Source: Escherichia coli (GTDB taxonomy: Bacteria; Pseudomonadota; Gammaproteobacteria; Enterobacterales; Enterobacteriaceae). From it: 64,000 nt of DNA. The notes beneath the pieces were generated by a model. It saw nothing but the letters and a program-made list of their open reading frames with translations. It was not told the origin of the DNA and made no database searches. A program made the position numbers and the translations under genes. Positions 9,272 through 35,491 of this stretch are shown here, piece after piece (the first letter of the stretch is position 1; every line of letters starts with the position of its first letter). The DNA lies in the NCBI RefSeq assembly GCF_046105845.1, contig NZ_CP151004.1; one strand, 5' to 3'.

Positions 9272-10643
9272 AGAGTTCCCCGCGCCAGCGGGGATAAACC
9301 GTTGTCCTGCTGAACCAAGTAAGCCACTGACAAGAGTTCCCCGCGCCAGCGGGGATAAACCGCATTATATCCTGTGCGTCGTTCATTTATTTACGAGTTC
9401 CCCGCGCCAGCGGGGATAAACCGGCCGCCGCATGGCAAAACAAACATCGGGGTACGAGTTCCCCGCGCCAGCGGGGATAAACCGGAACGGCGGCTATACG
9501 GATTCGACAGGTCAGCGAGTTCCCCGCGCCAGCGGGGATAAACCGGATTGAATGCAGATGGTTCAATGCTCGCATTCGAGTTCCCCGCGCCAGCGGGGAT
9601 AAACCGCCACGCGTGCTTTGAGTGGATGGTGTCGCTTGGAGTTCCCCGCGCCAGCGGGGATAAACCGATACATTATTAAGCGGGCAATTTTTCCAGTTTG
9701 AGTTCCCCGCGCCAGCGGGGATAAACCGAACGGCACGGCCTGCCGCCACGTCCCGCAGCTGAGTTCCCCGCGCCAGCGGGGATAAACCGGGGCCGTGTTT
9801 TCTAACGGATTCGCACATTGCGAGTTCCCCGCGCCAGCGGGGATAAACCGCAGCAGTTCAATACTGAAATCAACATGCCGATGAGTTCCCCGCGCCAGCG
9901 GGGATAAACCGCGCGGTGGGGTTTCATTCGCATCAATTCAAGGGAGTTCCCCGCGCCAGCGGGGATAAACCGGCGGTGAGTGAGAAAATCAGGACGGCTG
10001 CGAGGAGTTCCCCGCGCCAGCGGGGATAAACCGCGCCAAATATGCTGGTGGACTTCTACGCCGATGAGTTCCCCGCGCCAGCGGGGATAAACCGCTATCG
10101 ACGGTCAAGAAAATCCACCGGAAGAAGAGTTCCCCGCGCCAGCGGGGATAAACCGGCAGCAATATATTTGACATAATAGATAACCCGGAGTTCCCCGCGC
10201 CAGCGGGGATAAACCGACGCCAGGGGAGATATAACGCGCCTGTTATGGGAGTTCCCCGCGCCAGCGGGGATAAACCGGTCTTAACTAAAAGATGACCATT
10301 CAGTCGCAGGAGTTCCCCGCGCCAGCGGGGATAAACCGCGGCCCATAATATTAATATAATCCACATGAGGGAGTTCCCCGCGCCAGCGGGGATAAACCGC
10401 GCCGGAAATCATCGTTCTGTAATTGTCTAGCGAGTTCCCCGCGCCAGCGGGGATAAACCGCCCTGTTTGTTATTCCCATTATACGTATAAGAGAGTTCCC
10501 CGCGCCAGCGGGGATAAACCGCTTCTGGCTGGAGGTGGAGAAACGGAGGCAATGAGTTCCCCGCGTTAGCGGGGATAAACCGGATTTAGAGAGCCAGACG
10601 TTGGTCAGTTATTCGAGTTCCCCGCGTCAGCGGGGATAACCAT
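9272..10643 (+). CRISPR. orphan type I-E CRISPR array, 23 repeats / 22 spacers
   Basis: 29-bp repeat GAGTTCCCCGCGCCAGCGGGGATAAACCG at 61-bp period (first interval 62); last two repeats degenerate (GCGTTAGCGGGG; GCGTCAGCGGGGATAACCAT); no cas genes adjacent. Confidence 0.97.
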
Positions 10644-10654
10644 TCAGGTATGTT

Positions 10655-10685
10655 CAGGCCGGGCAGTTTCCCGCCCGGCCTTCCT
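10655..10685. terminator. putative hairpin between CRISPR array end and ygcE stop
   Basis: GC-rich hairpin CAGGCCGGGC-AGTTTCC-CGCCCGGCC; T-rich only on + side, so orientation uncertain. Confidence 0.35.
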
Positions 10686-10688
10686 CAC

Positions 10689-12167
10689 TTACGCATTCGA
10701 CCAGCTCTGGATCGAATCTTCATTCCCCAATTCCCCATGCATCACTTCATACGATTTTTTCAGGATCACATCAGTGTGTTTGGTTAGGTCTTTGAAAATG
10801 CCTTTATTCATCGCGTCGTAGCGTTTGGCGTTGCTCTCAACAGGCATAAAGATATCTTTCACGCGAACCATTTTGTCGACAGCCGTTGCGTAATCCGGGT
10901 ATAGCCCCAGACCTACCGCCGTATTAATCGCTGCCCCCAGGCTTGCACAACCATTAATGGCGTTACGGCGTGCCGGAAGGTTGAACACGTCGGCAAAAAT
11001 CTGCATAAACAGATCGCTGTTCGAACCGCCGCCAGTAATGATCACATGCTTTGCAAAGTGATTCATTTCATTACACATATTGTCGTAATTGTTCTTCAGC
11101 GTCAGCGCCACGCTTTCCAGTATCGAACGATATATCCATGCGTAATCCATGCTGGAATCAAAGCCGATCATAATCCCGCGTTTGTACGGTTCCCACGGAT
11201 TGGTCAGCCAGTCCAGCACCGTCATCAGACCATTACAGCCAGGCGGCACACAAGACGCTTTTTTGTTGAGCAAATCTTCCGGTGAAAGATCCTGTGCTTT
11301 GGCATCCTGAATTAACGACTCGCCTAACATGTCGCGTAGCCAGCTCACCGTCCACATGCCTTTGCGGATACCGTAACCTTCATACAGCAAGGTTTGTGGA
11401 ATAGAAGACATAATCGGCCAGTACGCTACCGGATCTTTCGGCAGTGCTTTGCCGTTCATCATCAACGCGATGTAAGTGCCAAGAGAAATTACCGCAGTTT
11501 CATCATCCAGTAACCCGGCTCCCAGTGCTTCTACCGGTTTATCACTGGTGGTACAAACAACCGGCAGCCCAGCCGGGAAATGTGTAGCCAGCGCGGCTTG
11601 AGGAGTGATATGCCCAAGAACAGTGCCCGGCATTTGCACATCAAACAGCATATGACGGGGGATATTAAACTTCTCCATGACTGCGGCATCTTCACTCCAT
11701 GCCCAGGTCTTATAATCCACCGGCCACTGACCAAAATAGTTGGCGATATTGTCTTTAAACTCGCCGGTTAAGCGATGCGTCAGATAACCTGAAAAAGAGG
11801 TGACATATGCCACGTCAGGATTCGTATGTTCGTAAGGGCGTGTAACGCGTGCATCCTGCCAGCTAATCAACGGCGCAGCTGGCGTGCCATCGGCTTTCAA
11901 TAACGCACGGCAGCAACGGATGGATCCCAGACCAATACCGACAATATCTTCTTTATTTCCGGCAAACTGACTCATCAAATCGTGACCGGCAAAACATAAT
12001 GATGCCCATAAATCGTCGTCAGGATGTTCTGCGGTATCGGCATCTGGCGTGTGCATCGGCTGTAATAAGCCTTTGCCTTCGCAAACCACGTTACCTTCCA
12101 GATCGTACATCACCACTTTTGTGCTCTGACTTCCGCCATCAATCCCTATGATGTATTTTTTCGACAT
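10689..12167 (-). CDS. ygcE: FGGY-family carbohydrate kinase
   Basis: 492-aa ORF MSKKYIIGIDGGSQSTKVVMYDLEGN..., FGGY kinase N- and C-domains. Confidence 0.85.
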   Translation of the reverse strand: MSKKYIIGIDGGSQSTKVVMYDLEGNVVCEGKGLLQPMHTPDADTAEHPDDDLWASLCFAGHDLMSQFAGNKEDIVGIGLGSIRCCRALLKADGTPAAPLISWQDARVTRPYEHTNPDVAYVTSFSGYLTHRLTGEFKDNIANYFGQWPVDYKTWAWSEDAAVMEKFNIPRHMLFDVQMPGTVLGHITPQAALATHFPAGLPVVCTTSDKPVEALGAGLLDDETAVISLGTYIALMMNGKALPKDPVAYWPIMSSIPQTLLYEGYGIRKGMWTVSWLRDMLGESLIQDAKAQDLSPEDLLNKKASCVPPGCNGLMTVLDWLTNPWEPYKRGIMIGFDSSMDYAWIYRSILESVALTLKNNYDNMCNEMNHFAKHVIITGGGSNSDLFMQIFADVFNLPARRNAINGCASLGAAINTAVGLGLYPDYATAVDKMVRVKDIFMPVESNAKRYDAMNKGIFKDLTKHTDVILKKSYEVMHGELGNEDSIQSWSNA

Positions 12168-12193
12168 GATTTTTCTCCTGTAATTTTCTGGAC

Positions 12194-13471
12194 TTACTTG
12201 CTGCTAGCCATAGCAGGGGCGCTATCAGCAGTACGAATTTTTTGGAACAGCAAAAAGGTAAAGACGATCACCATGGCAAGCGCCGCCATGCCCATCAGCC
12301 ACATATTGCGGTAGGCTTCTGCAGCGGGCAGGGTGTCTTGCCAGTAGCCGATAATCGGGTAAACGAAGACATCCGGCAGGAATCCAATCACCGAACAAAT
12401 ACCTACCGTGGTGCCCATAATGTAAGACGGTGTTCTCGCTTCGCCAGGGCAGGCCCAGTACAGCCCGCGTGAGGCGTAACAGGTGAATCCCAGCAGTAAA
12501 ATCAGGCCAATCCCCATCGCGACCGATTGCGGGTTAGAGTTCGTGACGAGCAGGGCAGTTAACGCCAGCAAGCCGAGTACGGAAAGGATTTGGATCACGC
12601 GGGTAGGGGATTTCACTTTGCTGTAGGTGGTGATAATGCCACCAAGTGGGCCGCACAGCGCGCGGAAGATTTTGTTGATCACAATCCCCATGTAGCTCGC
12701 CGCCACCAGCGACATGCCGTACATTTCGGTCAGATAGTTGGTGGAGTAACTCAGAATGGCGTAGATGGTGAAGACACCAAAAATCACCATGCTGCAATAC
12801 CAGGTGGTTCTGATGCGCAAAACGGCCAGGATGTCGCTAAGCTGGAATGAATGTTTTTCTTCGTTATTGGTATTGCGCAGGTTGTTGTTATCGCTGACAA
12901 AAAACCAACACAAAATGCCCAGCAGAATGTAAACCACACTATAGATAATAATGACCGTTTTCAGGCTGGCGCTGTCATCCGGTGCAAAGCGAGAAAAGAC
13001 CCACATGGTAAACACCGCCAGCGACATTACACCGACGCCGCGCAGCCCTTCCATCCAGCCCATAATTTTCCCTTGCTCGCTATGATCGCCCAGCAACGAT
13101 GCGGCTTTAATCGACACCGACCACAGCATTAAAATCGTCGTTATCGCAAAGGCGACCTGAATACAGAGCATTACCCACAGCGGTGGATATGTTGCCATTA
13201 ACAGACCCAGTAATCCGGTAATGATCATCGCGGAAGTAATCATTTTGCGGTGTGAAAATTTATCGGCAATAACGCCGCTGGGGGCATAAAGAATAATAGC
13301 CGCAATACCAAAGGTACTCATTATTAAACCTATCTCGGTATTGCTGAATCCCATAAATTTCGCCATGGGAATTTGATAAATATAACGTAAATAAGCCAGG
13401 TCGAAACTAACGCCGCCGCTAAAACTAATTATCGCGAGGGTTATCCAACGGCGATATGAGTTGTGTTGCAT
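12194..13471 (-). CDS. yqcE: MFS transporter
   Basis: 425-aa ORF with about 12 hydrophobic segments; immediately upstream of ygcE on same strand. Confidence 0.8.
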   Translation of the reverse strand: MQHNSYRRWITLAIISFSGGVSFDLAYLRYIYQIPMAKFMGFSNTEIGLIMSTFGIAAIILYAPSGVIADKFSHRKMITSAMIITGLLGLLMATYPPLWVMLCIQVAFAITTILMLWSVSIKAASLLGDHSEQGKIMGWMEGLRGVGVMSLAVFTMWVFSRFAPDDSASLKTVIIIYSVVYILLGILCWFFVSDNNNLRNTNNEEKHSFQLSDILAVLRIRTTWYCSMVIFGVFTIYAILSYSTNYLTEMYGMSLVAASYMGIVINKIFRALCGPLGGIITTYSKVKSPTRVIQILSVLGLLALTALLVTNSNPQSVAMGIGLILLLGFTCYASRGLYWACPGEARTPSYIMGTTVGICSVIGFLPDVFVYPIIGYWQDTLPAAEAYRNMWLMGMAALAMVIVFTFLLFQKIRTADSAPAMASSK

Positions 13472-13495
13472 ATCGTATTCCCATTTGTAATAGAC

Positions 13496-13543
13496 AAAAA
13501 AAAGAGAAAAGTAAGCCGCCCTTTCAGGTGGATTACTTTTCTC
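13496..13543 (-). terminator. leader hairpin + T8 run upstream of yqcE
   Basis: Minus-strand reading: stem GAGAAAAGTAA / TTACTTTTCTC (11 bp perfect), 18-nt loop, then TTTTTTTT (13496-13503), 24 nt before yqcE ATG. Confidence 0.6.
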
Positions 13544-13592
13544 AGGTCTCTAGTAATTGCAATAAGAAATAACATGGAAAGCAGTGGTGTTG

Positions 13593-13608
13593 TGTGAGAG
13601 TAATCACG
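13593..13608. promoter_or_regulatory. CRP-like binding site (TGTGA-N6-TCACG)
   Basis: TGTGAgagtaaTCACg in divergent yqcE/ygcW control region. Confidence 0.5.
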
Positions 13609-13649
13609 CTTCTGCTTTTTAAAATTATTTGACAATTCGAATATCACAC

Positions 13650-13665
13650 TGTGATTACGATCACA
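13650..13665. promoter_or_regulatory. CRP-like binding site (TGTGA-N6-TCACA)
   Basis: Perfect consensus half-sites TGTGAttacgaTCACA; about 20 bp upstream of a TATGAT -10-like hexamer. Confidence 0.6.
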
Positions 13666-13719
13666 TTAGCGATTATGCCCTTATGATAAAAATTATCTCC
13701 AGTTACCAGAGATAATGAG

Positions 13720-13766
13720 AAAGGTAACTTCCCTCTCGCGGGGGAAGTTACCTTTCTTTTTTTTTG
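13720..13766 (+). terminator. leader hairpin + T9 run upstream of ygcW
   Basis: Stem AAAGGTAACTTCCC / GGGAAGTTACCTTT (14 bp perfect), 8-nt loop, then CTTTTTTTTT; 23 nt before ygcW ATG; upstream AGTTACC segment could pair with the stem as an alternative structure. Confidence 0.65.
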
Positions 13767-13789
13767 CCTTACGGAAATTGGAGCTAACT

Positions 13790-14575
13790 ATGTCAATCGA
13801 ATCTCTCAATGCGTTCTCAATGGATTTTTTCTCCCTGAAAGGTAAAACCGCAATTGTTACCGGCGGGAATAGCGGTTTAGGCCAGGCATTTGCCATGGCG
13901 CTGGCCAAAGCAGGCGCAAATATCTTTATTCCAAGCTTCGTTAAAGATAACGGAGAAACAAAGGAAATGATTGAAAAACAGGGTGTTGAGGTGGACTTCA
14001 TGCAGGTGGATATCACCGCAGAAGGCGCGCCGCAGAAGATAATCGCCGCCTGTTGCGAACGTTTCGGTACCGTCGATATTCTGATTAACAATGCCGGTAT
14101 TTGTAAGCTGAATAAGGTGCTGGACTTCGGTCGTGCCGACTGGGACCCGATGATTGATGTGAACCTGACCGCCGCATTCGAGTTAAGCTATGAAGCGGCA
14201 AAAATTATGATCCCGCAGAAAAGCGGTAAAATCATTAATATCTGTTCATTGTTCTCTTACTTAGGTGGACAATGGTCACCTGCTTATTCTGCCACTAAAC
14301 ATGCTCTTGCCGGATTCACCAAAGCCTATTGCGATGAATTAGGTCAATATAATATTCAGGTGAATGGTATTGCTCCGGGATATTACGCTACCGATATCAC
14401 TCTGGCGACCCGTAGTAATCCAGAAACTAACCAGCGCGTTCTTGATCATATTCCGGCAAACCGTTGGGGCGATACTCAGGATTTAATGGGCGCAGCCGTA
14501 TTCCTCGCAAGTCCGGCATCGAATTATGTCAACGGACATTTATTAGTGGTTGATGGCGGTTATTTAGTGCGCTAA
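13790..14575 (+). CDS. ygcW: short-chain dehydrogenase/reductase
   Basis: 261 aa from MSIESLNAFSMDFFSLKGKTAIVTGGNSGLGQ (Rossmann TGxxxGxG), catalytic YxxxK present. Confidence 0.85.
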   Translation: MSIESLNAFSMDFFSLKGKTAIVTGGNSGLGQAFAMALAKAGANIFIPSFVKDNGETKEMIEKQGVEVDFMQVDITAEGAPQKIIAACCERFGTVDILINNAGICKLNKVLDFGRADWDPMIDVNLTAAFELSYEAAKIMIPQKSGKIINICSLFSYLGGQWSPAYSATKHALAGFTKAYCDELGQYNIQVNGIAPGYYATDITLATRSNPETNQRVLDHIPANRWGDTQDLMGAAVFLASPASNYVNGHLLVVDGGYLVR

Positions 14576-14644
14576 TCCATAACGGTGGTTTCTGTTTTCT
14601 CTTATTAATGATTATTCCATTTTTATTATCAGGAAGGAATTACT

Positions 14645-16099
14645 ATGTCTTTATCTCGCGCAGCGATTGTCGACCAGCTAAAGGAAATTGTTGGTGCAGA
14701 TCGCGTAATTACCGATGAAACAGTATTAAAGAAAAACAGTATTGACCGTTTTCGTAAATTTCCGGATATTCATGGTATTTATACTTTGCCGATTCCGGCA
14801 GCGGTCGTAAAACTCGGTTCCACAGAACAAGTCTCCCGTGTGCTGAATTTTATGAATGCGCACAAAATTAACGGTGTGCCGCGTACCGGCGCTTCCGCCA
14901 CTGAAGGTGGGCTGGAAACCGTTGTGGAAAACTCGGTGGTGCTCGACGGCTCCGCCATGAATCAAATCATTAATATTGATATTGAGAATATGCAGGCCAC
15001 GGCGCAATGTGGTGTTCCGCTGGAAGTGCTGGAAAACGCGTTGCGTGAAAAAGGTTACACCACGGGGCATTCTCCGCAGTCAAAGCCGCTGGCGCAGATG
15101 GGCGGCCTGGTAGCAACCCGCAGTATCGGGCAGTTCTCCACACTCTACGGCGCAATCGAAGATATGGTCGTTGGTCTGGAAGCGGTACTGGCAGATGGCA
15201 CCGTAACACGCATTAAAAACGTACCACGCCGCGCGGCAGGCCCGGACATTCGCCACATCATCATCGGCAACGAAGGTGCATTGTGCTATATCACTGAAGT
15301 AACAGTGAAAATCTTTAAGTTCACCCCGGAAAACAACCTCTTCTACGGCTATATCCTGGAAGACATGAAAACCGGCTTCAACATCCTGCGTGAAATCATG
15401 GTGGAAGGGTATCGTCCGTCGATCGCTCGTTTGTATGACGCTGAAGATGGCACCCAACACTTCACCCATTTTGCCGATGGTAAATGTGTGCTGATCTTTA
15501 TGGCTGAAGGTAACCCTCGCATTGCGAAGGCGACAGGCGAAGGGATTGCGGAAATCGTGGCACGTTACCCGCAATGCCAGCGAGTGGACAGCAAGCTGAT
15601 CGAAACCTGGTTTAATCACCTGAACTGGGGGCCGGATAAAGTGGCCGCTGAACGTGTGCAGATCCTCAAAACCGGCAACATGGGCTTTACCACCGAAGTG
15701 TCCGGCTGCTGGAGCTGCATCCACGAAATCTACGAAAGCGTTATTAACCGTATTCGTACCGAGTTCCCGCACGCCGACGACATCACCATGCTGGGCGGTC
15801 ACTCCTCTCACAGCTACCAGAACGGCACCAACATGTACTTCGTTTACGACTACAACGTTGTTGACTGTAAGCCGGAAGAGGAAATCGACAAGTACCACAA
15901 TCCGCTCAACAAAATCATCTGCGAAGAAACCATTCGCCTCGGCGGTTCGATGGTGCACCACCACGGTATTGGTAAACATCGCGTTCACTGGAGCAAACTG
16001 GAACACGGCAGCGCGTGGACGTTGCTGGAAGGTCTGAAAAAACAGTTCGATCCTAACGGCATTATGAATACGGGTACTATCTATCCGATTGAAAAATAA
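14645..16099 (+). CDS. ygcU: FAD-linked oxidase (GlcD-like)
   Basis: 484-aa ORF with FAD-binding PCMH-type domain features. Confidence 0.8.
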   Translation: MSLSRAAIVDQLKEIVGADRVITDETVLKKNSIDRFRKFPDIHGIYTLPIPAAVVKLGSTEQVSRVLNFMNAHKINGVPRTGASATEGGLETVVENSVVLDGSAMNQIINIDIENMQATAQCGVPLEVLENALREKGYTTGHSPQSKPLAQMGGLVATRSIGQFSTLYGAIEDMVVGLEAVLADGTVTRIKNVPRRAAGPDIRHIIIGNEGALCYITEVTVKIFKFTPENNLFYGYILEDMKTGFNILREIMVEGYRPSIARLYDAEDGTQHFTHFADGKCVLIFMAEGNPRIAKATGEGIAEIVARYPQCQRVDSKLIETWFNHLNWGPDKVAAERVQILKTGNMGFTTEVSGCWSCIHEIYESVINRIRTEFPHADDITMLGGHSSHSYQNGTNMYFVYDYNVVDCKPEEEIDKYHNPLNKIICEETIRLGGSMVHHHGIGKHRVHWSKLEHGSAWTLLEGLKKQFDPNGIMNTGTIYPIEK

Positions 16100-16191
16100 T
16101 ATGTCAGGCAGCGTTCCGCTATGAGGGGCGTTGCCTTTTCGGCTTCTCAGGCGAGAAGCCGTTCTTATTACCGGACAATGAAGGGGTAAAG

Positions 16192-17529
16192 ATGAACACT
16201 TCACCGGTGCGAATGGATGATTTACCGCTTAACCGTTTTCACTGTCGAATTGCTGCGCTCACTTTCGGCGCGCACCTGACCGACGGTTATGTTCTCGGCG
16301 TCATTGGTTACGCCATTATTCAGCTTACACCCGCCATGCAACTGACGCCGTTTATGGCGGGAATGATTGGCGGCTCAGCACTCCTTGGTTTGTTTCTTGG
16401 CAGCCTGGTTCTGGGCTGGATCTCCGACCATATTGGGCGACAAAAAATCTTCACCTTCAGCTTTTTGCTGATTACGCTTGCTTCGTTTTTACAATTTTTT
16501 GCCACCACGCCAGAGCATCTTATTGGACTGCGCATTTTGATTGGCATTGGTCTGGGAGGCGATTACTCAGTCGGTCACACCTTGCTGGCTGAATTTTCCC
16601 CGCGCCGCCATCGCGGTGTTTTGCTGGGCGCATTCAGCGTAGTGTGGACGGTGGGCTATGTGCTGGCAAGCATTGCCGGACATCACTTTATTAGCGAAAG
16701 CCCGGAGGCCTGGCGCTGGCTGCTGGCATCGGCAGCTCTGCCCGCATTGTTGATTACGTTATTACGCTGGGGAACGCCAGAATCGCCACGCTGGCTACTG
16801 CGCCAGGGGCGTTTTGCAGAAGCTCACGCTATCGTGCATCGCTATTTTGGTCCCCATGTTTTACTGGGCGATGAAGTGGCAACGGCGACCCATAAACACA
16901 TCAAAACCTTGTTCTCTTCGCGCTACTGGCGGCGCACGGCGTTTAACAGCGTCTTCTTTGTCTGCCTCGTAATCCCATGGTTTGTGATTTATACCTGGCT
17001 GCCAACTATCGCCCAGACTATTGGTCTGGAAGATGCGTTGACTGCCAGCCTGATGCTTAATGCGTTGTTAATTGTGGGTGCGCTGCTGGGATTAGTTCTG
17101 ACGCACCTGCTGGCACATCGCAAATTTTTGCTGGGAAGTTTTTTGCTGCTGGCGGCAACGCTGGCAGTGATGGCTTGTTTGCCTTCCGGCAGTTCATTAA
17201 CGCTGCTGCTTTTTGTTCTCTTCAGCACCACCATTTCGGCAGTCAGTAATCTGGTGGGCATTTTGCCTGCGGAAAGTTTTCCTACTGACATTCGCTCGCT
17301 GGGCGTCGGTTTTGCCACCGCCATGAGTCGACTTGGCGCGGCGGTAAGTACTGGCCTGCTGCCGTGGGTGCTGGCGCAGTGGGGAATGCAAGTCACCTTA
17401 TTGCTCCTGGCGGCAGTGTTGTTGGTTGGTTTTGTTGTGACCTGGCTATGGGCACCAGAAACCAAAGCACTCTCGCTGGTGGCGGCGGGAAATGTAGGAG
17501 GTGCGAATGAACATTCTGTTAGCGTTTAA
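16192..17529 (+). CDS. ygcS: MFS sugar-porter-type transporter
   Basis: 445-aa ORF, 12 predicted hydrophobic segments, MFS motifs. Confidence 0.8.
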   Translation: MNTSPVRMDDLPLNRFHCRIAALTFGAHLTDGYVLGVIGYAIIQLTPAMQLTPFMAGMIGGSALLGLFLGSLVLGWISDHIGRQKIFTFSFLLITLASFLQFFATTPEHLIGLRILIGIGLGGDYSVGHTLLAEFSPRRHRGVLLGAFSVVWTVGYVLASIAGHHFISESPEAWRWLLASAALPALLITLLRWGTPESPRWLLRQGRFAEAHAIVHRYFGPHVLLGDEVATATHKHIKTLFSSRYWRRTAFNSVFFVCLVIPWFVIYTWLPTIAQTIGLEDALTASLMLNALLIVGALLGLVLTHLLAHRKFLLGSFLLLAATLAVMACLPSGSSLTLLLFVLFSTTISAVSNLVGILPAESFPTDIRSLGVGFATAMSRLGAAVSTGLLPWVLAQWGMQVTLLLLAAVLLVGFVVTWLWAPETKALSLVAAGNVGGANEHSVSV

Positions 17530-18286
17530 AGCCGAACCGGATGCCGGAATGCTGGCGGAAAAAGAGTGGCAGGCGGCGGCTCAGGGTAATAGCGGACCGG
17601 ATGTTTCGCTTCTGCGAAGTTTACTCGGTGCTGATGAACAGGCTGCCGCCGCGCTGCTGTTGGCGCAGAGAAAAAACGGTACGTCGATGTCTTTAACCGC
17701 GTTGAGCATGGGGGATGAACGGGCGTTGCACTGGCTGCGCTATCTCATGGCCCTTGGGTTTGAGGAAGCTGTATTGCTGGAGACAGCGGCAGATCTGCGC
17801 TTTGCGCCGGAATTTGTCGCTCGCCATATTGCCGAATGGCAGCGTCAGAATCCGCTGGATCTGATAATTACCGGCTGCCAAAGCAGCGAAGGGCAGAATG
17901 GGCAAACGCCATTTTTGCTGGCGGAAATGCTGGGCTGGCCCTGCTTCACCCAGGTGGAGCGTTTCACTCTCGACGCGCCGTTTATCACCCTCGAACAGCG
18001 TACTGAACATGGGCTGCGCTGTTGCCGGGTTCGCTTGCCTGCGGTGATTGCCGTGCGCCAGTGCGGTGAAGTGGCCTTGCCAGTACCGGGAATGCGCCAG
18101 CGAATGGCGGCGGGGAAAGCAGAAATTATCCGTAAAACTGTTGCTGCCGAATTGCCAGCGATGCAGTGTCTGCAACTGGCAAGAGCAGAGCAACGACGCG
18201 GAGCGAGGCTGATTGATGGGCAAACGGTAGCAGAAAAAGCGCAAAAGCTATGGCAGGACTATTTACGCCAAAGGATGCGGCCATGA
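17507..18286 (+). CDS. ygcR: electron transfer flavoprotein beta-subunit-like (FixA-like)
   Basis: 259 aa from MNILLAFKAEPDAG...; ETF-beta-like start; overlaps ygcS end. Confidence 0.75.
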   Translation: MNILLAFKAEPDAGMLAEKEWQAAAQGNSGPDVSLLRSLLGADEQAAAALLLAQRKNGTSMSLTALSMGDERALHWLRYLMALGFEEAVLLETAADLRFAPEFVARHIAEWQRQNPLDLIITGCQSSEGQNGQTPFLLAEMLGWPCFTQVERFTLDAPFITLEQRTEHGLRCCRVRLPAVIAVRQCGEVALPVPGMRQRMAAGKAEIIRKTVAAELPAMQCLQLARAEQRRGARLIDGQTVAEKAQKLWQDYLRQRMRP

Positions 18287-19143
18287 ATATCGCAATTGTG
18301 ACAATAAATCAGGAGAATGCCGCAATAGCGAGCTGGCTGGCGGCGCAGGATTTCAGCGGTTGTACCCTGGCGCACTGGCAGATTGAACCTCAGCCCGTAG
18401 TGGCGGAACAGGTGCTGGATGCGCTGGTGGAACAGTGGCAGCGAACGCCTGCGGACGTTGTTCTCTTTCCGCCGGGAACGTTTGGCGATGAACTGTCGAC
18501 CCGGCTGGCCTGGCGTTTACATGGTGCAAGCATCTGCCAGGTGACTTCGTTAGATATTCCAACCGTAAGCGTGCGCAAATCCCACTGGGGAAATGCGCTA
18601 ACGGCGACGCTGCAAACAGAAAAACGCCCGCTATGCCTTTCCCTGGCGCGTCAGGCGGGAGCAGAGAAAAACGCCACGTTGCCCTCTGGTATGCAGCAAC
18701 TGAATATTGTCCCGGGTGCGCTTCCCGACTGGCTGGTTAGCACAGAGGATCTGAAAAATGTTACCCGCGACTCATTAGCTGAAGCCAGACGGGTGCTGGT
18801 GGTGGGGCAGGGCGGAGAGGCAGATAACCAGGAAATCGCTATGCTGGCAGAAAAGCTGGGAGCCGAAGTGGGCTACAGTCGGGCGCGAGTGATGAACGGT
18901 GGCGTTGATGCTGAAAAAGTGATTGGTATTTCCGGACATTTGCTGGCACCTGAGGTGTGTATTGTTGTTGGCGCTTCCGGCGCAGCAGCGTTAATGGCGG
19001 GCGTACGCAATAGCAAGTTTGTGGTGGCGATTAATCATGACGCCAGCGCGGCGGTATTTTCACAGGCAGATGTTGGCGTGGTTGATGACTGGAAAGCGGT
19101 GCTGGAGGCACTGGTGACAACCATTCACGCAGATTGCCAATAA
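18283..19143 (+). CDS. ygcQ: electron transfer flavoprotein alpha-subunit-like (FixB-like)
   Basis: 286 aa from MNIAIVTINQEN...; ETF-alpha C-terminal FAD-binding region; overlaps ygcR. Confidence 0.75.
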   Translation: MNIAIVTINQENAAIASWLAAQDFSGCTLAHWQIEPQPVVAEQVLDALVEQWQRTPADVVLFPPGTFGDELSTRLAWRLHGASICQVTSLDIPTVSVRKSHWGNALTATLQTEKRPLCLSLARQAGAEKNATLPSGMQQLNIVPGALPDWLVSTEDLKNVTRDSLAEARRVLVVGQGGEADNQEIAMLAEKLGAEVGYSRARVMNGGVDAEKVIGISGHLLAPEVCIVVGASGAAALMAGVRNSKFVVAINHDASAAVFSQADVGVVDDWKAVLEALVTTIHADCQ

Positions 19144-19149
19144 CGTGCT

Positions 19150-19262
19150 GCCGGATGATCCTGCCTACGGTTCTGGGCTGGGGACTTGTAAGCCTGATAA
19201 GACGCGTCAAGCGTCGTATCAGGCGCTGAATGTCGGATGTGGCGTGCAGCCTACAAAGCACA
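19150..19262. repeat. REP/BIME-like palindromic units
   Basis: GCCTGATAAGACGCG...CGTCGTATCAGGC imperfect palindromes and CGGATG motifs between convergent ygcQ and ygcP. Confidence 0.6.
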
Positions 19263-19289
19263 TAAATTCAACTCGTTACGAGTATCCCG

Positions 19290-19865
19290 TCAAAGCAATT
19301 TTTTCGCTAACGTCCAGACCCCGGTATTCGTGGTGGAAAGCGCCACAACACCCGCGTTAATCGCATTACGCGCATCTTCTTCATCGCACACCAGCCCGCC
19401 GGCAATCAGCGGTTGGCGGATTTTCTCCGTCACCCAGCCCAGCACTTTAGGCATACAGCCTGGCAGGATCTCAATACAATCCGGATTCGATTGCGCAACT
19501 TGCTTATCAATGTTGTGAAACGAAATTGAATCAACAATAAACAGGCGATGAATACAGAAAAAACCTTCCGCTCTTGCCGCTTTCAACATTGAGGCTTTGG
19601 TACTGATAATGCCGTCCGCCTCAGTCACCAGTTTCAAAAACTGAATCACCACTTCTTTATTTGACGCGCCTTCCAGCAAATCAACATGAATAAAAGCATA
19701 TTTTCCGGCATTTTTAATCTTTTTAACGATTTGACTAATGGTGCAGATATTGCCGTACAACACGGAAATAAACTGGCATTCAGAGTCGATTGCCAGTTGC
19801 AGGCTGGCATTATCTTTAACGGCAGCAATCACCGGATTCTGGCGGAGCAGGTGTAAGAGGGGCAT
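19290..19865 (-). CDS. ygcP: GlpP-family putative RNA-binding transcription antiterminator
   Basis: 191-aa ORF MPLLHLLRQNPVIAAVKDNASLQLAIDSE..., GlpP-like. Confidence 0.75.
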   Translation of the reverse strand: MPLLHLLRQNPVIAAVKDNASLQLAIDSECQFISVLYGNICTISQIVKKIKNAGKYAFIHVDLLEGASNKEVVIQFLKLVTEADGIISTKASMLKAARAEGFFCIHRLFIVDSISFHNIDKQVAQSNPDCIEILPGCMPKVLGWVTEKIRQPLIAGGLVCDEEDARNAINAGVVALSTTNTGVWTLAKKLL

Positions 19866-19881
19866 AAATTATCCTTATTAT

Positions 19882-20142
19882 TTATCCAAAACGGTAGGTG
19901 ATGCCGAATCCGGAAGGCGGATAGCGCCACTGTTGTAGTGTTGATTCGTCGCACAGCAAACGGCAGGTGCCACACTCCAGGCAGCCGCGATAATCAACGC
20001 GTAAGTCACCTTCCGGTGTGAGCGAAAAAAGACCAGCCGGACAAGCGTTAATCAACCGTTGTACCGTCTGGCGCTCAACGGAGTCAGCCGGAACAATGTG
20101 CGGCGCATCGGCAACGCGCCAGAGATTACGGGCTACAGACAT
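19882..20142 (-). CDS. ygcO: ferredoxin-like protein (FixX-like)
   Basis: 86 aa from MSVARNLW...; Cys motif CLECGTCRLLC. Confidence 0.7.
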   Translation of the reverse strand: MSVARNLWRVADAPHIVPADSVERQTVQRLINACPAGLFSLTPEGDLRVDYRGCLECGTCRLLCDESTLQQWRYPPSGFGITYRFG

Positions 20143-21404
20143 CGCAGACTCCTGATAACATCGCCCGCCAGATGCCACAGGCCGTGACGACGTAAATGAC
20201 GCCAGAGCAACTGGCGCAGCGGCGGAACAGGTTTATCACCCTGATCCCATAAATCACGGGAAATATCCTGCATTAACGCAGGCCACGCCCGATACCAGCC
20301 AGGGCGTTGCAAAAGCGCCGGAACATGCTGATAACGTTGTAGAACATCCCATAGCAGGCTGCGCTCGACGTTGTGATGATAAAGCGCAAACAGATTTTGC
20401 GGCTCGCGGTGCTGGCAGGCGCTTATCAGCGTTTGTGCCGCCGCCTGCGCGCCAGTTAGCGCCATATCCATGCCGCGCACGGAAATTCCGGTATTGACGC
20501 AACTGCGCAACGCATCGCCCACCAGCAGCCAGCCGTTACCGGCGTATTGCACCGGCATACTGTGCAAGCCACCTTCTGGCACCAGATGCGCACCATACTC
20601 CAGTGATTCCGTGTTTTTGATAAGCGGGCGCACTGCCGGATGCGTTTTAAAGCGAGCCAGCAGCTCGCTTGCCGGAACACGACTTTGCGTAAGGGAAGAG
20701 AGCGGGCAAACAATCCCTAACGAGAGCGTTTGTTGATTAGTATAAAGAAATGCGCCGCCGGGTAAGTCATCACAGATTCCGCCGCTGAACAGCAACGCTG
20801 CGCCTTCGTTATTCTCCAGATGAAAACGTTCTTCAATAGCGGATGTTTCCAGCGACAGCACTTCTTTGATCCCCAACGCCATCGCTTCGCCAGCAGGACG
20901 AGTCACTAACCCGTGACGCTCAGCCAGGACGCTGTTGGCACCTTCTGCCAGCACCACATAACGGGCGCGGAGAATATCGTCACCACAAATGACACCACAC
21001 ACCATGCCGTTTTCTTCATACAGCGCATCCACCGTCGCACCGGGGATGCATTCGACACCTTCTTTTTCGGCTTCGGCAACCAGCCACGGATCGAACCGTG
21101 CACGTAATACACTCCAGGATTCACCGCCGGGCTGTAAGCTGGAAAACGTCGTTGCGCCATCCGGCGTTAACAGGGAAAGGCTTTCGTGAGTGATGCGTCG
21201 TTCAAGAGGCGCGGTCAGATGAAATTGTGGGAGGAGTTCCGCGAGCGCCTGGGTATATAAACGCCCGCCGGAAAGATTTTTGCTGCCGGGGATTTCAGCG
21301 CGTTCCAGTAACAAAACGGATAAACCTGCCCGCGCGCAGCGTAAAGCACAAGCGGTGCCTGCTATACCCGCACCAATAATAATAATGTCGCAGTCGTCTT
21401 CCAT
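20133..21404 (-). CDS. ygcN: FAD-dependent oxidoreductase (FixC / ETF-QO-like)
   Basis: 423 aa from MEDDCDIIIIGAGIAGTACA (FAD GxGxxG). Confidence 0.8.
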   Translation of the reverse strand: MEDDCDIIIIGAGIAGTACALRCARAGLSVLLLERAEIPGSKNLSGGRLYTQALAELLPQFHLTAPLERRITHESLSLLTPDGATTFSSLQPGGESWSVLRARFDPWLVAEAEKEGVECIPGATVDALYEENGMVCGVICGDDILRARYVVLAEGANSVLAERHGLVTRPAGEAMALGIKEVLSLETSAIEERFHLENNEGAALLFSGGICDDLPGGAFLYTNQQTLSLGIVCPLSSLTQSRVPASELLARFKTHPAVRPLIKNTESLEYGAHLVPEGGLHSMPVQYAGNGWLLVGDALRSCVNTGISVRGMDMALTGAQAAAQTLISACQHREPQNLFALYHHNVERSLLWDVLQRYQHVPALLQRPGWYRAWPALMQDISRDLWDQGDKPVPPLRQLLWRHLRRHGLWHLAGDVIRSLRCL

Positions 21405-21481
21405 GTCGTGCCCCATATATCCAGAGCGCAACACCCTAACATAGCGTTACTTAAGGGAAATTGACCGCCGACACACTCTTA

Positions 21482-21847
21482 TCATTCGCCGCGATAGATG
21501 CAACCTGCGGTGCAGGTTTCTTTCACCATAACCGCACTTAACAGCGGAACAACCGGTTTAACCTGATCCCAAATCCATTTTGCTAAAACCTCGCTGGTCG
21601 GGTTTTCCAGACCTGGAATATCATTGAGATAATGGTGATCGAGGCGCTCATAAGTTGGCTTAAACGCCGCTTTCAGTTCAGCGAAATCGATAATCCAGCC
21701 CGTATGCGGATCGACTTCCCCGGTAATTTCCAGTCGCACCATAAAGGAATGCCCGTGCAGGCGACCACATTTATGCCCTTCCGGGACGTGTGGTAAGCGG
21801 TGAGCGGCTTCGAAGGTGAAATCTTTAAATAACGTGGTGGACATCAT
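21482..21847 (-). CDS. queD: 6-carboxy-5,6,7,8-tetrahydropterin synthase
   Basis: 121 aa from [35 protein letters not shown]... (PTPS family motifs). Confidence 0.85.
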
Positions 21848-22162
21848 AATTTCTCTACAGGACGATAAAACCGCCGTAGAGTACCGGAAAGGCTGTTTTT
21901 TCGCATTATCTAAAACGACTTTGTTGCGCAAAATCGCTGATTTATCTTAATGATTGGCTAAATTCATTTGTTTTTCATTGGGTTGGTTAATCTGTTTTGT
22001 TGTTAAAGACTATTGCTAAAACAGGTTAGTCGATTTGGTTATTAGTTATCGCTATCCCGTCTTTAATCCACACCGTTCACCCCGTTAACCTTACCTTCTC
22101 TTCTGTTTTATGGGCGCTGACAGGGCGCAGAAACAGCTTTGCTTACTGGAACATAACGACGC

Positions 22163-29507: not shown

Positions 29508-29921
29508 CTTCGGGAATGATTGGTATCAATGACGATAACAAGACCAATAACGGTTTATCCCTACTTAAGTAGGGAAGGTGCACAATGTACATCTTCTTTT
29601 AATTTCCCGGTATGAGATTTTATATTCACAGTATGAATATTTTATGTAATAAAATTCATGGTGATTATTATAACTAAAAATTTCTTTGATAATAAAACGA
29701 ATAACTTGCAGATTTGAAATGCATGCATTATTGTCTTTAAACAATTCAACACATCTTAATATATGCATAGGTTAATTGTATTAAACCAATGGATATATTT
29801 TTGCAGTGAATGTGATTATTGAATTAATTACGCCGTATTTTTTCTTTGTTTTTACCGATAACGGAAGTGTGCCGACGTATAGAAATGCAGGAGAAATGTC
29901 GGAGCATATGAAGGAGAACAA
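29508..29921 (+). promoter_or_regulatory. AT-rich intergenic region upstream of cse1 (Cascade operon promoter region)
   Basis: 414-bp strongly AT-rich tract between cas3 and cse1; in K-12 the corresponding region holds the H-NS-repressed, LeuO-activated Pcas promoter. Confidence 0.55.
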
Positions 29922-31905: not shown

Positions 31906-31917
31906 GGAAACCTTTCT

Positions 31918-33009: not shown

Positions 33010-33011
33010 AC

Positions 33012-34272: not shown

Positions 34273-34287
34273 TTGAGGTGTAATAAA

Positions 34288-35491
<1,204 letters not shown>

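Follow-up and report, generated by a model that had tools for sequence, protein, structure and literature searches.

The window, a stretch of 64,000 nucleotides of an Escherichia coli genome (contig NZ_CP151004.1), carries at positions 10689-21404 the ten genes of the ygc cluster (Table 1). All ten ORFs are intact at the positions given in a preliminary description made from the letters alone, and they agree with the RefSeq annotation of the syntenic E. coli region (locus L001). The genes and protein families named there are likewise confirmed by the ORFs, this annotation and profile matches, as are the flanking CRISPR array and queD. The array had been called an orphan, which is correct in that no cas genes are adjacent, but ORFs of the size expected of a type I-E cas operon, unannotated here, lie at ~26.8-35.2 kb of the same window. 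The genes form three transcription units, namely ygcWUSRQ and yqcE-ygcE, which are divergent from each other, and ygcNOP. Of 5426 complete E. coli genomes, 5425 have a match to the region, with coverage of 80% or more in 5057, and many strains have IS3 insertions within it.

Table 1. Genes, leader elements and CRP sites of the ygc region, by position in the window.
Feature	Position	Strand	Description
CRISPR repeats	9455-10522		Type I-E
ygcE	10689-12167	-	FGGY-family kinase, 492 aa; second gene of yqcE-ygcE operon
yqcE	12194-13471	-	MFS transporter, 425 aa; weak MFS subfamily matches
yqcE leader	13493-13563	-	CM R1 match, 57.5 bits, E 1.7e-8; absent from CM R1 training set
yqcE terminator hairpin	13543-13504	-	Followed by U-run 13503-13496
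yqcE antiterminator strands	13557-13552, 13537-13532	-	AUUACU, AGUAAU; loop 13551-13538
CRP-like site 2	13593-13608		TGTGAGAGTAATCACG; 1 mismatch; pattern search
CRP site 1	13650-13665		TGTGATTACGATCACA; perfect; centre ~39 nt upstream of ygcW leader 5' end
ygcW leader	13696-13769	+	Top terminator-like site of the region, 19 pairs
ygcW antiterminator strands	13701-13707, 13723-13729	+	AGUUACC, GGUAACU; loop 13708-13722
ygcW terminator hairpin	13717-13758	+	Followed by U-run 13759-13766
ygcW	13790-14575	+	SDR dehydrogenase, 261 aa; first gene of ygcWUSRQ
ygcU	14645-16099	+	FAD-linked flavoenzyme, 484 aa; FAD_binding_4/FAD-oxidase_C
ygcS	16192-17529	+	MFS transporter, 445 aa
ygcR	17507-18286	+	Divergent ETF beta; Pfam ETF 6.4e-17, NCBIfam matches weak
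ygcQ	18283-19143	+	Divergent ETF alpha; Pfam ETF_alpha 3.5e-17 plus ETF
ygcP	19290-19865	-	GlpP-family (PF04309) antiterminator protein; last gene of ygcNOP
ygcO	19882-20142	-	FixX-like ferredoxin; NCBIfam FixX 84 bits
ygcN	20133-21404	-	FixC/YdiS/ETF-quinone-oxidoreductase-like flavoprotein; PRK10015 379 bits, FixC 362 bits
queD	21482-21844		

The strongest terminator-like site in the region is found 24 nt ahead of ygcW and belongs to one of two leaders, on the ygcW and yqcE operons, that are new here and were missed in the preliminary description. Both follow a plan of ~70 nt in which a weak antiterminator hairpin overlaps a strong intrinsic terminator. A CM R1 search of the whole window returned exactly two real matches, the ygcW leader (88.5 bits) and the untrained yqcE leader, and found no such element upstream of ygcN; ygcNOP is a separate unit that supplies the regulator YgcP. 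The ygcW leader folds at -34.2 kcal/mol (z -6.3) and its antiterminator alone at -6.7, and the corresponding values for yqcE are -22.3 (z -3.9) and -1.4. It is thus strongly supported that the leaders fold by default into the terminator, yielding a short dead-end RNA, and that the 6-7-bp antiterminator helix, which has a conserved purine-rich loop and overlaps the 5' arm of the terminator, is too weak to form unaided. Searches of Rfam 15 with the leaders gave no match, and no leader peptide is evident in them. Two short RNAs already detected in K-12, ecr2774 (73 nt) and ecr2775 (63 nt, northern-positive), overlay the ygcW and yqcE leaders, respectively, to within 1-6 nt.

Each of the two divergent promoters also has a CRP site at class-II distance, an arrangement that we regard as strongly supported. 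CRP site 1, before ygcW, is bound in K-12 with a Footprint-seq Kd of 1.7 nM (PMC12871828) and is also among PhyloScan predictions. CRP-like site 2 is centred ~38-44 nt ahead of the 5' end of the yqcE leader, its AATCACG half-site is kept in enterobacterial loci, and yqcE-ygcE is listed as Crp-activated (PMC8085971). The claim that the cluster is a coherent module is therefore substantiated by a common leader and an individual CRP site in two of its three transcription units, and the shared leaders are the most concrete evidence for co-regulation.

Fifty-six distinct loci, belonging to Enterobacterales, Photobacterium, Bacilli, Clostridia and Sporomusa, carry the leader ahead of the SDR gene. 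The leader sequence is conserved from E. coli to the Bacilli, Clostridia and Sporomusa. The antiterminator helix is 99.6% paired, with compensatory changes in three of seven pairs, compared to at most 56% pairing in slid controls; an independent alignment of 72 leaders gives 94.8%. The terminator helix is 93% paired, with double changes in 10 of 18 pairs. YgcP matches PF04309 (G3P_antiterm) over its full length (E 1.6e-62) and the PDB entries 3kts (8.5e-28) and 1vkf, which upholds its earlier description as a GlpP-like regulator. Loci with YgcP carry the leader in 56 of 60 cases, the other four having a weak leader match alone. Neither YgcP nor the leader is found in 22 loci, of which those with long flanks encode other types of regulator nearby, and only five have the leader without detectable YgcP, four of them on truncated contigs. 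The leader is apparently opened by YgcP.

A precedent for such a switch is found in Bacillus subtilis, where GlpP, together with glycerol-3-phosphate, opens the terminators that lie in the leaders of glpD, glpFK and glpTQ. Its similarities to the ygc system include a PF04309 regulator, a promoter-proximal intrinsic terminator, a preceding short helix that contributes its 3' strand to the start of the terminator arm, and a purine-rich loop with two GAG motifs. In addition, the regulated genes encode a transporter, an FGGY kinase and a FAD dehydrogenase, with catabolite control on top. The glpD 5' UTR has the same layout as the ygc leaders by eye, but a MAFFT alignment did not reproduce this likeness. 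The ygc stems are AGUUACY/RGUAACU rather than GGUC/GACC, the operons are in a Gram-negative organism under CRP instead of CcpA, and YgcP is encoded in a separate operon with FixCX-like genes. In the RAT elements of BglG/SacY-type systems, too, a protein stabilises an antiterminator hairpin that overlaps the terminator of the leader in its 5' arm. However, PF04309 is unrelated to CAT/PRD proteins, and there is no PTS control in ygc.

Co-occurrence profiling, a check proposed in the preliminary description, reveals that the core genes travel together across phyla. The conserved core consists of the SDR, the FGGY kinase, YgcU and YgcP, usually with ETF, and the gene order in Firmicutes is W-E-U-ETF. 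An FGGY gene is present in 71 and an SDR gene in 78 of 83 YgcU loci. The YgcW-type SDR, found in 78 of 84 YgcU-family loci (L001-L084), is 63-100% identical across phyla, and YgcU is 65-73% identical in Firmicutes and Desulfobacterota. The triad of dehydrogenase, FGGY kinase and YgcU-like protein is kept even in relatives with 46-58% identity. The proposed ETF/Fix-type electron chain is accessory rather than core. YgcN and YgcO, as well as YgcS, are found only in Enterobacterales, and ETF genes are absent from several variants, including halophilic Bacilli and an Erwinia/Pantoea/Serratia-type variant. In Photobacterium, a second ETF has an alpha subunit with a faint Fer4_7 (ferredoxin-type) match, and the second-ETF alpha subunit of Geosporobacter is similarly lengthened (388-398 aa). 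Recurrent accessory genes encode a formaldehyde-activating-enzyme homologue, a PanB-like protein, MttB-family methyltransferases and a proline-racemase-like protein.

No NCBIfam family among the ygc proteins reaches its equivalog cut-off. YgcE is best matched by XylB and LsrK (~140 bits), its FGGY matches being far under the cut-offs, and its closest PDB relatives are LsrK and glycerol kinases. YgcW scores 350 bits with the KduD model (cut-off 369) and is also near gluconate 5-dehydrogenase. YgcS matches MFS subfamilies of the aromatic-acid, sugar-porter and organic-cation types, the similarity of YqcE to the D-galactonate transporter family is weak, and homologues of yqcE in Photobacterium have the same leader upstream.

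The best PDB matches of YgcU are 4bby and 2uuu, structures of alkyl-dihydroxyacetone-phosphate synthase (alkyl-DHAP synthase; ADPS/AGPS). Catalytic residues Arg419, Tyr578 and His615-617 of ADPS align with the invariant R262, Y398 and H438-440 of YgcU, whereas a co-encoded GlcD-like paralogue has SEH in place of HHH. With the YgcU family profile, ADPS is the better match (192 bits vs 126 bits). Judged by these residues, YgcU has the active-site hallmarks of an alkyl-DHAP synthase rather than those of GlcD or lactate dehydrogenases. The two proteins share FAD_binding_4 and FAD-oxidase_C domains, but YgcU lacks the ~180-residue N-terminal extension of ADPS, is soluble and operon-encoded with ETF genes following it, and its substrate is expected to be small and polar, the reaction being possibly a net oxidation. 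Catalysis by ADPS involves no net redox change and no ETF, such that an electron-transfer step for YgcU is an extrapolation. LctBCD (7qh2) and other ETF-using GlcD-family dehydrogenases likewise combine a GlcD-superfamily flavoenzyme with adjacent ETF beta and alpha genes. However, the YgcU motif is ADPS-type, and YgcQ, unlike its LctBCD counterpart, has no ferredoxin domain in a Pfam profile search.

No substrate assignment for the cluster was found in the literature, in agreement with the earlier remark that the substrate is not established. The accompanying suggestion of a sugar, polyol or sugar acid is too unspecific and in part misleads. The substrate is unlikely to be a plain sugar acid, because YgcU has an ADPS-type active site and because, in other phyla, the same regulon uses transporters of the BCCT/Opu betaine/choline type. 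We consider it reasonably probable that the locus is one catabolic regulon modelled like the Gram-positive glycerol (glp) system. On the best reading, this regulon is of the GlpP style and handles a glycerol-like compound, and YgcU processes the phosphorylated ketol formed from it. The compound, taken up by YqcE and/or YgcS, would end in a glycerol-like diol. YgcW would oxidise its secondary alcohol and YgcE, before or after this step, would phosphorylate the terminal CH2OH to give a 1-substituted dihydroxyacetone-phosphate analogue. YgcU may then attack the substituted carbon by alkyl-DHAP-synthase-type flavin chemistry, most simply in an oxidative C-X cleavage that yields a triose-phosphate-level product and XH. 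The ETF YgcR/YgcQ would accept the electrons, which in enterics would travel on to quinone by way of YgcN/YgcO. Presumably, YgcP loaded with a phosphorylated pathway intermediate binds the leader element and permits read-through. Glycerol-3-phosphate itself is presumably not this effector, given the different set of enzymes, with YgcU in place of GlpD and the addition of an SDR. The transporter genes that follow such leaders are of the BCCT, Opu-type ABC and MFS kinds. The BCCT and Opu-type transporters, which are the ones used outside enterics, suggest that X in other phyla might carry a quaternary-ammonium-type head group, as the substrate of these relatives probably does. The E. coli substrate may differ, because E. 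coli uses MFS rather than BCCT/Opu transporters. Against this scheme are the ETF-less variants, the accessory genes noted above, which it leaves unexplained, and the detection of YgcR on 2D gels of glucose-grown cells, which would not be expected of a terminated operon that depends on CRP. The apparent YgcP-leader switch offers a practical route to finding the nutrient of the cluster.

Other interpretations of the enzymes are conceivable. An ordinary module for a neutral sugar, polyol or sugar acid, in which YgcU is a GlcD/LctD-type D-2-hydroxyacid dehydrogenase feeding ETF, would be consistent with the 144-bit match of YgcU to the GlcD model and its PDB match to LctD of the lactate dehydrogenase-ETF complex. 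The sugar-related matches of YgcW and YqcE, and the sugar-type ABC transporters beside 46%-identical YgcU relatives, point the same way. We regard this as unlikely given the stronger ADPS match with its invariant catalytic residues, a regulator from a glycerol-3-phosphate-sensing family, the BCCT or Opu-type transporters in the same regulon elsewhere, and the failure of any family to attain an equivalog cut-off. The Cai system, which imports a quaternary amine by a BCCT transporter, suggests an alternative direction of electron flow. The fixABCX products of E. coli are thought to feed electrons to a reductase of this carnitine pathway. The caiTABCDE-fixABCX and ydiQRST loci resemble ygc in pairing paralogous ETF beta/alpha and FixC/FixX-type sets with a specialised pathway, but in ygc the gene order is broken up into two units that converge, the partner is an enzyme other than an acyl-CoA dehydrogenase, and control is apparently by RNA antitermination. 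By analogy, quinol or NADH might supply electrons through YgcN/YgcO and ETF to YgcU, which would reduce or cleave a phosphorylated intermediate anaerobically, for example by reductive release of an amine alpha to a carbonyl. Many of the bacteria carrying the cluster are strictly anaerobic and possess a second ETF, with an alpha subunit as described above for Photobacterium and Geosporobacter. Such an electron sink seems somewhat less probable again, as aerobic halophilic Bacilli retain W-E-U without any ETF and CRP control suits carbon catabolism.

The leaders could instead be metabolite-binding riboswitches or plain attenuators independent of YgcP, which would then function elsewhere. Their mutually exclusive helices do recall riboswitch expression platforms, but the conserved part, a 7-bp helix with a ~15-nt loop, is too small for any known type of aptamer. 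This small size, together with the lack of an evident leader peptide, the co-occurrence of leader and YgcP and the glpD-like layout, makes the idea improbable. Least credible, in our opinion, is the idea that the cluster is a mosaic in which unrelated or decaying genes stand together without sharing a function. There is no published growth phenotype, IS3 elements have entered the region in many strains, and ygcN, ygcO and ygcS are lineage-specific additions. However, the ten ORFs are intact and widely retained in the species, both divergent operons have leaders and CRP sites in common, and the W, U and P proteins are 50-100% identical across phyla.

The ygc cluster itself is already known and annotated in E. 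coli, without an assigned pathway. What is new is a link across phyla between a structured RNA leader and the YgcP protein, the reading of the short RNAs ecr2774 and ecr2775, a predicted active site of the alkyl-dihydroxyacetone-phosphate synthase (ADPS) type in YgcU, and the division of the genes into core and accessory members. From these features, we infer that ygc employs GlpP-type antitermination to control a pathway built on a kinase and a flavoenzyme.

No other terminator-like site in the 12-kb stretch is as strong as one in the 318-bp intergenic region between the divergent genes ygcW and yqcE. This terminator of the ygcW leader has 19 pairs followed by a T9 run, and ends 24 nt 5' of the ygcW start codon. 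On the opposite strand, a similar and slightly weaker site is located 5' of yqcE. Among 80 loci encoding YgcU relatives taken from a species-representative genome collection, the leader element 5' of the SDR gene is represented by 56 distinct sequences and is conserved in sequence, beyond mere shape. Its consensus is (C)AGTTACY-AGAG-N4-5-GAGAGAAARGTAACTTCC-loop-GGAAGT..GCTTTTCTCTC-T7-9, and its hosts include Enterobacterales, Photobacterium, Halobacillus, Virgibacillus, Thalassobacillus, Geosporobacter, other Clostridia, and Sporomusa.

Two alternative helices can form in this element, and they are mutually exclusive because the 5' AGUUACY sequence pairs with RGUAACU inside the 5' arm of the terminator. 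Pairing in the 7-bp antiterminator helix reaches 99.6% across 38 distinct leaders, and three of its seven pairs show compensatory double changes (G-C to A-U, A-U to G-C, and U-A to C-G). When the 3' partner was slid by 1-3 columns as a control, antiterminator pairing fell to 19-56%. In the terminator helix, pairing stands at 93% and 10 of the 18 pairs carry double changes. Even when 72 leaders were aligned by a model, with the fit made to the terminator instead of the antiterminator, antiterminator pairing was 94.8%, with a G-C/A-U swap in 20 sequences. The two terminators have fold energies of -34.2 (z -6.3) and -22.3 kcal/mol (z -3.9), each followed by a U-run, whereas the antiterminator hairpins alone reach -6.7 and -1.4 kcal/mol. 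The default outcome should therefore be termination, with a factor needed to open the leader.

A search of the 64-kb window with a covariance model of the leader (R1) returned exactly two real matches, one on each side of the intergenic region, and the divergent pair is present in every enterobacterial locus examined with this model. A third leader 5' of ygcN was sought, including with R1 over the window, and none was found. Rfam 15 holds no family for the element; its candidates rliE (26 bits) and SurA (23 bits) are sub-threshold matches driven by the terminator hairpin, with alignments that reflect no real homology. A sequence considered as the antiterminator strand of yqcE, GATTACTCTC, proved instead to be half of the second CRP-like site, and the true strand is AUUACU.

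Features of the ygc region and its surroundings (positions in the window)
Feature	Position	Strand	Details
Type I-E CRISPR repeats	9455-9790 and 9883-10522		Beside ygcE; repeat GAGTTCCCCGCGCCAGCGGGGATAAACCG
ygc cluster	10689-21404		Ten ORFs
yqcE leader	13493-13563	-	R1, 57.5 bits, E about 1e-8; outside training set
Antiterminator strand of yqcE leader	13557-13552	-	AUUACU
CRP-like site	13593-13608		One mismatch; centre ~38-44 nt 5' of yqcE leader
Rejected antiterminator strand	13595-13606		GATTACTCTC
CRP site	13650-13665		Perfect; centre ~39 nt 5' of ygcW start of transcript (short-RNA 5' ends)
ygcW leader	13696-13769	+	R1, 88.5 bits
Region of 1-nt indel versus AST215	16100-16192		Alters upstream frame of ygcS
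GC-rich 9-bp hairpin	16140-16161		CGGCTTCTCAGGCGAGAAGCCG then TTCTTATT; between ygcU and ygcS
naRNA4 match	19192-19224		28 bits, below gathering score; gap between convergent ygcQ and ygcP
queD stop to ygcN start	21405-21481		78 nt
Putative type I-E cas operon (by size alone)	26841-35205		ORFs of 888, 502, 160, 363, 226, 199, and 310 aa; beyond cysJIH

Products of these leaders appear to have been detected previously in K-12, where two short RNAs were reported from the ygcW-yqcE intergenic region (Romero et al. 2014, PMC4681348). These are ecr2774(u+), at 2898315-2898388 (73 nt), and ecr2775(u+), at 2898527-2898590 (63 nt); the latter was confirmed by northern analysis and its abundance depends on the medium (PMC4681348). 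In current K-12 coordinates, the R1 matches to the leaders are 2900294-2900367 (-) and 2900500-2900570 (+). Shifting both reported RNAs by the same 1979 nt puts ecr2774 exactly on the first leader and brings ecr2775 to within 1 nt of the second at the 3' end and 6 nt at the 5' end. The shift between the two K-12 sequence versions is presumably about 1978 nt, close to the offset used. Because the RNAs superimpose on the leaders through this inferred offset, ecr2774 and ecr2775 are prematurely terminated leaders, extending from the antiterminator strand to the U-run.

A high-affinity CRP site between ygcW and yqcE has been predicted by PhyloScan and measured by Footprint-seq (Kd 1.7 nM), and yqcE-ygcE is on a list of Crp-activated units. 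The positions of the perfect site and of its one-mismatch counterpart reveal a symmetric architecture, each side combining a CRP site at class-II distance with a promoter and a leader switch.

The obvious partner of these leaders is YgcP, given their near-perfect co-occurrence. YgcP matches PF04309 (G3P_antiterm; Pfam 1.6e-62) over residues 12-184 of 191, has no NCBIfam match, and has the PDB relatives 3kts (8.5e-28) and 1vkf. When YgcP presence was scored per locus by tblastn and leaders were divided into strong and weak (26-40 bits) matches, 56 loci had YgcP with a strong leader, four had YgcP with only a weak match, and 22 lacked both. Several of these 22 loci with long flanks have sigma-54, LysR, IclR, YhfZ, or GntR-type regulators nearby. 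In five loci a leader is present and YgcP was not detected, four of these being on truncated contigs. The sole full-length exception is from Serratia microhaemolytica, with leaders of 78.7 and 62.1 bits and no YgcP in its 21-kb locus.

In Bacillus subtilis, GlpP with glycerol-3-phosphate opens terminators in the 5' UTRs of glpD, glpFK, and glpTQ (PMC9604022). The ygc system shares the hallmarks of this class: a PF04309 regulator, terminators in 5' leaders, an overlapping antiterminator, and co-occurrence of regulator and site. By eye, the B. subtilis glpD 5' UTR has a ygc-like layout, with GGUC, a 14-nt purine-rich loop (CUGAGAUGAGGAGA, compared with AGAGAUAAUGAGAAA in the ygc leader), and GACC starting the terminator arm. 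This correspondence was not recovered when the glpD 5' UTR was aligned with the ygc leaders by MAFFT, and we therefore treat the resemblance as a lead only. No such system is described in the literature searched or in Rfam 15, and we know of no earlier one recognised in E. coli. Judged from sequence, ygc is thus apparently the first case of GlpP-type antitermination to be recognised in this species. The ygcNOP unit, which includes the regulator gene, is without a leader. No terminator was seen by eye in the short gap separating it from queD, and ygcNOP may be partly co-transcribed with queD.

The locus has the composition proposed in the preliminary description, with exactly those ten ORFs present. 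Its claim that they form a coherent module is borne out and strengthened by the leaders, the CRP sites, and the cross-phylum YgcP link. The family assignments are likewise upheld by homology, although no score attains the equivalog level of NCBIfam. YgcE belongs to the FGGY kinases, its top NCBIfam matches being XylB and LsrK (~140 bits); against models for specific FGGY kinases (XylB, LsrK, GlpK, AraB, FucK, RhaB, GntK), it scores at best 143 bits compared to a cut-off of 380. YgcW, an SDR protein, reaches 350 and 275 bits with KduD models whose cut-offs are 369 and 339, respectively. In NCBIfam and Pfam, ygcR and ygcQ match ETF beta and alpha with weak scores; in NCBIfam, ygcO is FixX-like and ygcN is FixC/YdiS-like (379 bits). 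By homology, a FixABCX-type set is complete (ETF beta and alpha, FixC-like, FixX-like), with low ETF scores and its genes split over two convergent units. YgcQ (286 aa) has ETF and ETF_alpha domains alone and no N-terminal ferredoxin domain of the LctBC type. A faint Fer4_7 match is found on a second ETF alpha of Photobacterium.

These long-unassigned genes are near-core in E. coli: the ygc region was matched by megablast in 5425 of 5426 complete genomes and was at least 80% covered in 5057. The gene order in the syntenic RefSeq region is queE, CRISPR, ygcE, yqcE, ygcW, ygcU, ygcS, ygcR, ygcQ, ygcP, ygcO, ygcN, queD, cysJIH. The window allele is somewhat divergent for E. coli: over ygcW-yqcE, it is 98.3% identical to strain AST215 and 96.2% identical to K-12. 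In many strains, an IS3-family transposase lies under the match to window positions 10000-22000. A full-text literature search found no substrate or pathway assignment for the ygc genes. A 2026 paper treats ygcU as an uncharacterised FAD oxidoreductase whose deletion is without effect on D-serine signalling, and the description of yqcE as a 'predicted glycerophosphodiester transporter' is a prediction quoted in passing. The 'ygcO' of a PTS-Ntr review is a misprint for ycgO. YgcR has been seen on 2D gels of glucose-grown E. coli and named a 'death protein' of the MazF pathway, and its deletion raised survival after DNA damage (PMC2646832). Its presence in glucose-grown cells is unexpected for a gene located behind a CRP-dependent promoter and a leader terminator.

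Co-occurrence profiling, as advised in the preliminary description, was carried out by ORF clustering over the loci and by tblastn. The SDR, the FGGY kinase, YgcU, and YgcP are widely found together, but YgcS, YgcN, and YgcO are restricted to Enterobacterales and the ETF is absent in variants. The SDR is present in 78 of 83 loci with YgcU (63-100% identity to E. coli), the kinase in 71, YgcP in 57 by ORF clustering or 60 by tblastn (38-100% identity), and ETF alpha and beta in 59 and 56, respectively (25-40% identity outside enterics). In Firmicutes and Desulfobacterota, the order is P / W-E-U-ETFbeta-ETFalpha (single letters denoting the Ygc proteins), and often a second FAD oxidase, of GlcD-like type, and another ETF come next. 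Clusters without ETF occur in aerobic halophilic Bacilli, SAR324, and a subset of Enterobacterales (Erwinia, Pantoea, Izhakiella, and some Serratia and Enterobacter assemblies). In place of the ETF, both this enterobacterial subset and SAR324 have genes for an aldo-keto reductase (like YghZ and YdjG) and for a homologue of formaldehyde-activating enzyme (Fae), which scores 140 bits compared to an NCBIfam cut-off of 118. The Fae homologue is beside the YgcU-cluster transporter in four Enterobacterales loci (L034, L039, L046, and L048), in one from SAR324 (L050), and in locus L085. To our knowledge, tetrahydromethanopterin is not expected in Enterobacterales.

YgcU forms a tight family, with 65-73% identity between E. 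coli and Firmicutes or Desulfobacterota. Its next relatives, at 58% and 46%, have neighbourhoods that keep a dehydrogenase (SDR or Fe-ADH), an FGGY kinase, and a YgcU-like enzyme. Two sequences from distant hosts, a Planctomycetota MAG (99% identical to E. coli YgcU) and a Chryseobacterium sp. (88-89%, with the full enterobacterial gene order), probably derive from contaminating enterobacterial contigs in their assemblies.

In non-enteric loci, the leader also precedes transporter genes, which places those transporters in the regulon. Sporomusa, Dethiosulfatibacter, and two Clostridia MAGs have it 5' of BCCT genes. In Bacillota and Syntrophomonadaceae MAGs, it lies 5' of an Opu-type ABC operon that includes an OsmF/OpuAC-like binding protein, and in Photobacterium it lies 5' of a YqcE-like MFS gene. 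Recurrent neighbours encode non-pyrrolysine MttB-family methyltransferases, a corrinoid protein, and PanB-like and proline-racemase-like proteins. In Alkalihalobacillus, genes for an aspartase-like lyase, a betaine-aldehyde-dehydrogenase-like ALDH, and a class III ADH are located directly 5' of BCCT-W-E-U. One of the 58% relatives has an Opu-type ABC system, Fae, and a tartronate-semialdehyde-reductase-like gene 5' of SDR-YgcU-FGGY. The transporters and neighbouring genes point to a non-enteric substrate with a quaternary-ammonium-type head group. Since MFS transporters take this role in E. coli, the part of its substrate left untouched by YgcW, YgcE, and YgcU may be different.

YgcU is a GlcD-superfamily protein, and its homologues carry the PCMH-type FAD domain (PF01565) and FAD-oxidase_C cap (PF02913) expected of ADPS. 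Its best solved relatives are ADPS enzymes. The family profile scores 192 and 171 bits with ADPS, compared to 126 for glycolate oxidase and 92 for LctD. ADPS Arg419, Tyr578, and the His615-His617 loop, which we take to be catalytic from mutant PDB entries and knowledge of ADPS, align with the invariant YgcU residues R262, Y398, and H438-H440. The motif SLSHHHGVGK of ADPS corresponds to S[ML]VHHHGIGK in YgcU (MVHHHGIGK in the window protein), whereas the GlcD-like paralogue beside YgcU in anaerobes has SEH in place of HHH. A GlcD/LctD-type enzyme is not indicated, as YgcU scores 144 bits with the GlcD model (cut-off 568) and has no ..EHG.G.. motif. YgcU is thus predicted to have an ADPS-type active site. 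However, the N-terminal extension of ~180 residues in ADPS is not found in YgcU (484 aa, aligned from ADPS residue ~180). We therefore class YgcU as ADPS-like and not as ADPS, an enzyme defined also by a lipid-substrate tunnel and acyl/alkyl exchange activity. An AlphaFold2 model of YgcU built on a 12-sequence alignment was poor (mean pLDDT 63.7).

ADPS binds C1-substituted dihydroxyacetone phosphate (DHAP), and its flavin makes the C1 substituent leave. YgcW would oxidize a secondary alcohol beside a terminal CH2OH, by analogy with its closest relatives, KduD and gluconate 5-dehydrogenase, which catalyse reactions of this type. YgcE would phosphorylate that CH2OH to give X-CH2-CO-CH2-O-P, with either order of the two steps allowed. 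YgcU would then attack the X-bearing carbon, and the flavin-iminium intermediate, if hydrolysed, would yield XH, a 2-oxoaldehyde phosphate, and reduced flavin. Reoxidation might proceed via the ETF and, in enterics, on through YgcN/YgcO to quinone, with electron flow in either direction conceivable. The aldo-keto reductases, tartronate-semialdehyde-reductase-like enzymes, ADHs, and ALDHs of variant clusters would suit handling of an aldehyde product. YgcP loaded with a phosphorylated intermediate from YgcE would bind and stabilise the antiterminator, such that the transporter-kinase and enzyme operons might form a positive loop like that of B. subtilis glp.

A bolder proposal, which we regard as improbable, is that the YgcW-YgcE-YgcU triad performs a previously unrecognised flavin-dependent cleavage at C1 of a glycerol moiety, acting on bonds that cannot be hydrolysed. 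The free diol end would be oxidized and phosphorylated to a 1-substituted DHAP, from which the ADPS-like enzyme, acting 'in reverse', would release the substituent and a triose phosphate. Glyceryl ethers or amines bearing a quaternary-ammonium head group could serve as natural substrates, for example glyceryl-trimethylhomoserine from deacylated betaine lipids (DGTS), with the E. coli version harvesting only the glycerol part. This would explain the BCCT and Opu systems under the same leaders, the nearby MttB-family methyltransferases, and the ADH, ALDH, and lyase trio of Alkalihalobacillus. Glycerophosphocholine is an unlikely substrate because simple phosphodiesterases already split it, and the sulfonate DHPS, suggested by the adjacent cysJIH genes, does not fit the BCCT, Opu, and MttB context.

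With two CRP-dependent promoters, two leader terminators, and its own GlpP-family protein, the cluster can now be viewed as a regulon with a readable switch. A leader-reporter fusion should respond only to a compound that is imported and phosphorylated, and thus the substrate could be found by screening. The occurrence of an ADPS-like enzyme in soluble catabolism, shared by E. coli, Firmicutes, and Desulfobacterota, points to undescribed bacterial catabolic chemistry. Given that relatives use betaine-type transporters, the pathway may be connected to the turnover of quaternary amines or betaine lipids in marine, saline, and gut environments.

Several smaller features were also observed. The CRISPR array beside ygcE had been called an orphan, which fits its position, but ORFs of cas-like size are located ~16 kb away in the same window. 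The indel upstream of ygcS leaves 445 aa in the window protein, which we take to be the YgcS length in K-12, compared to 469 aa annotated in AST215. The weak naRNA4-like match is taken as a REP-type element, and the GC-rich hairpin between ygcU and ygcS may be an internal attenuator or processing site of the ygcWUSRQ transcript.
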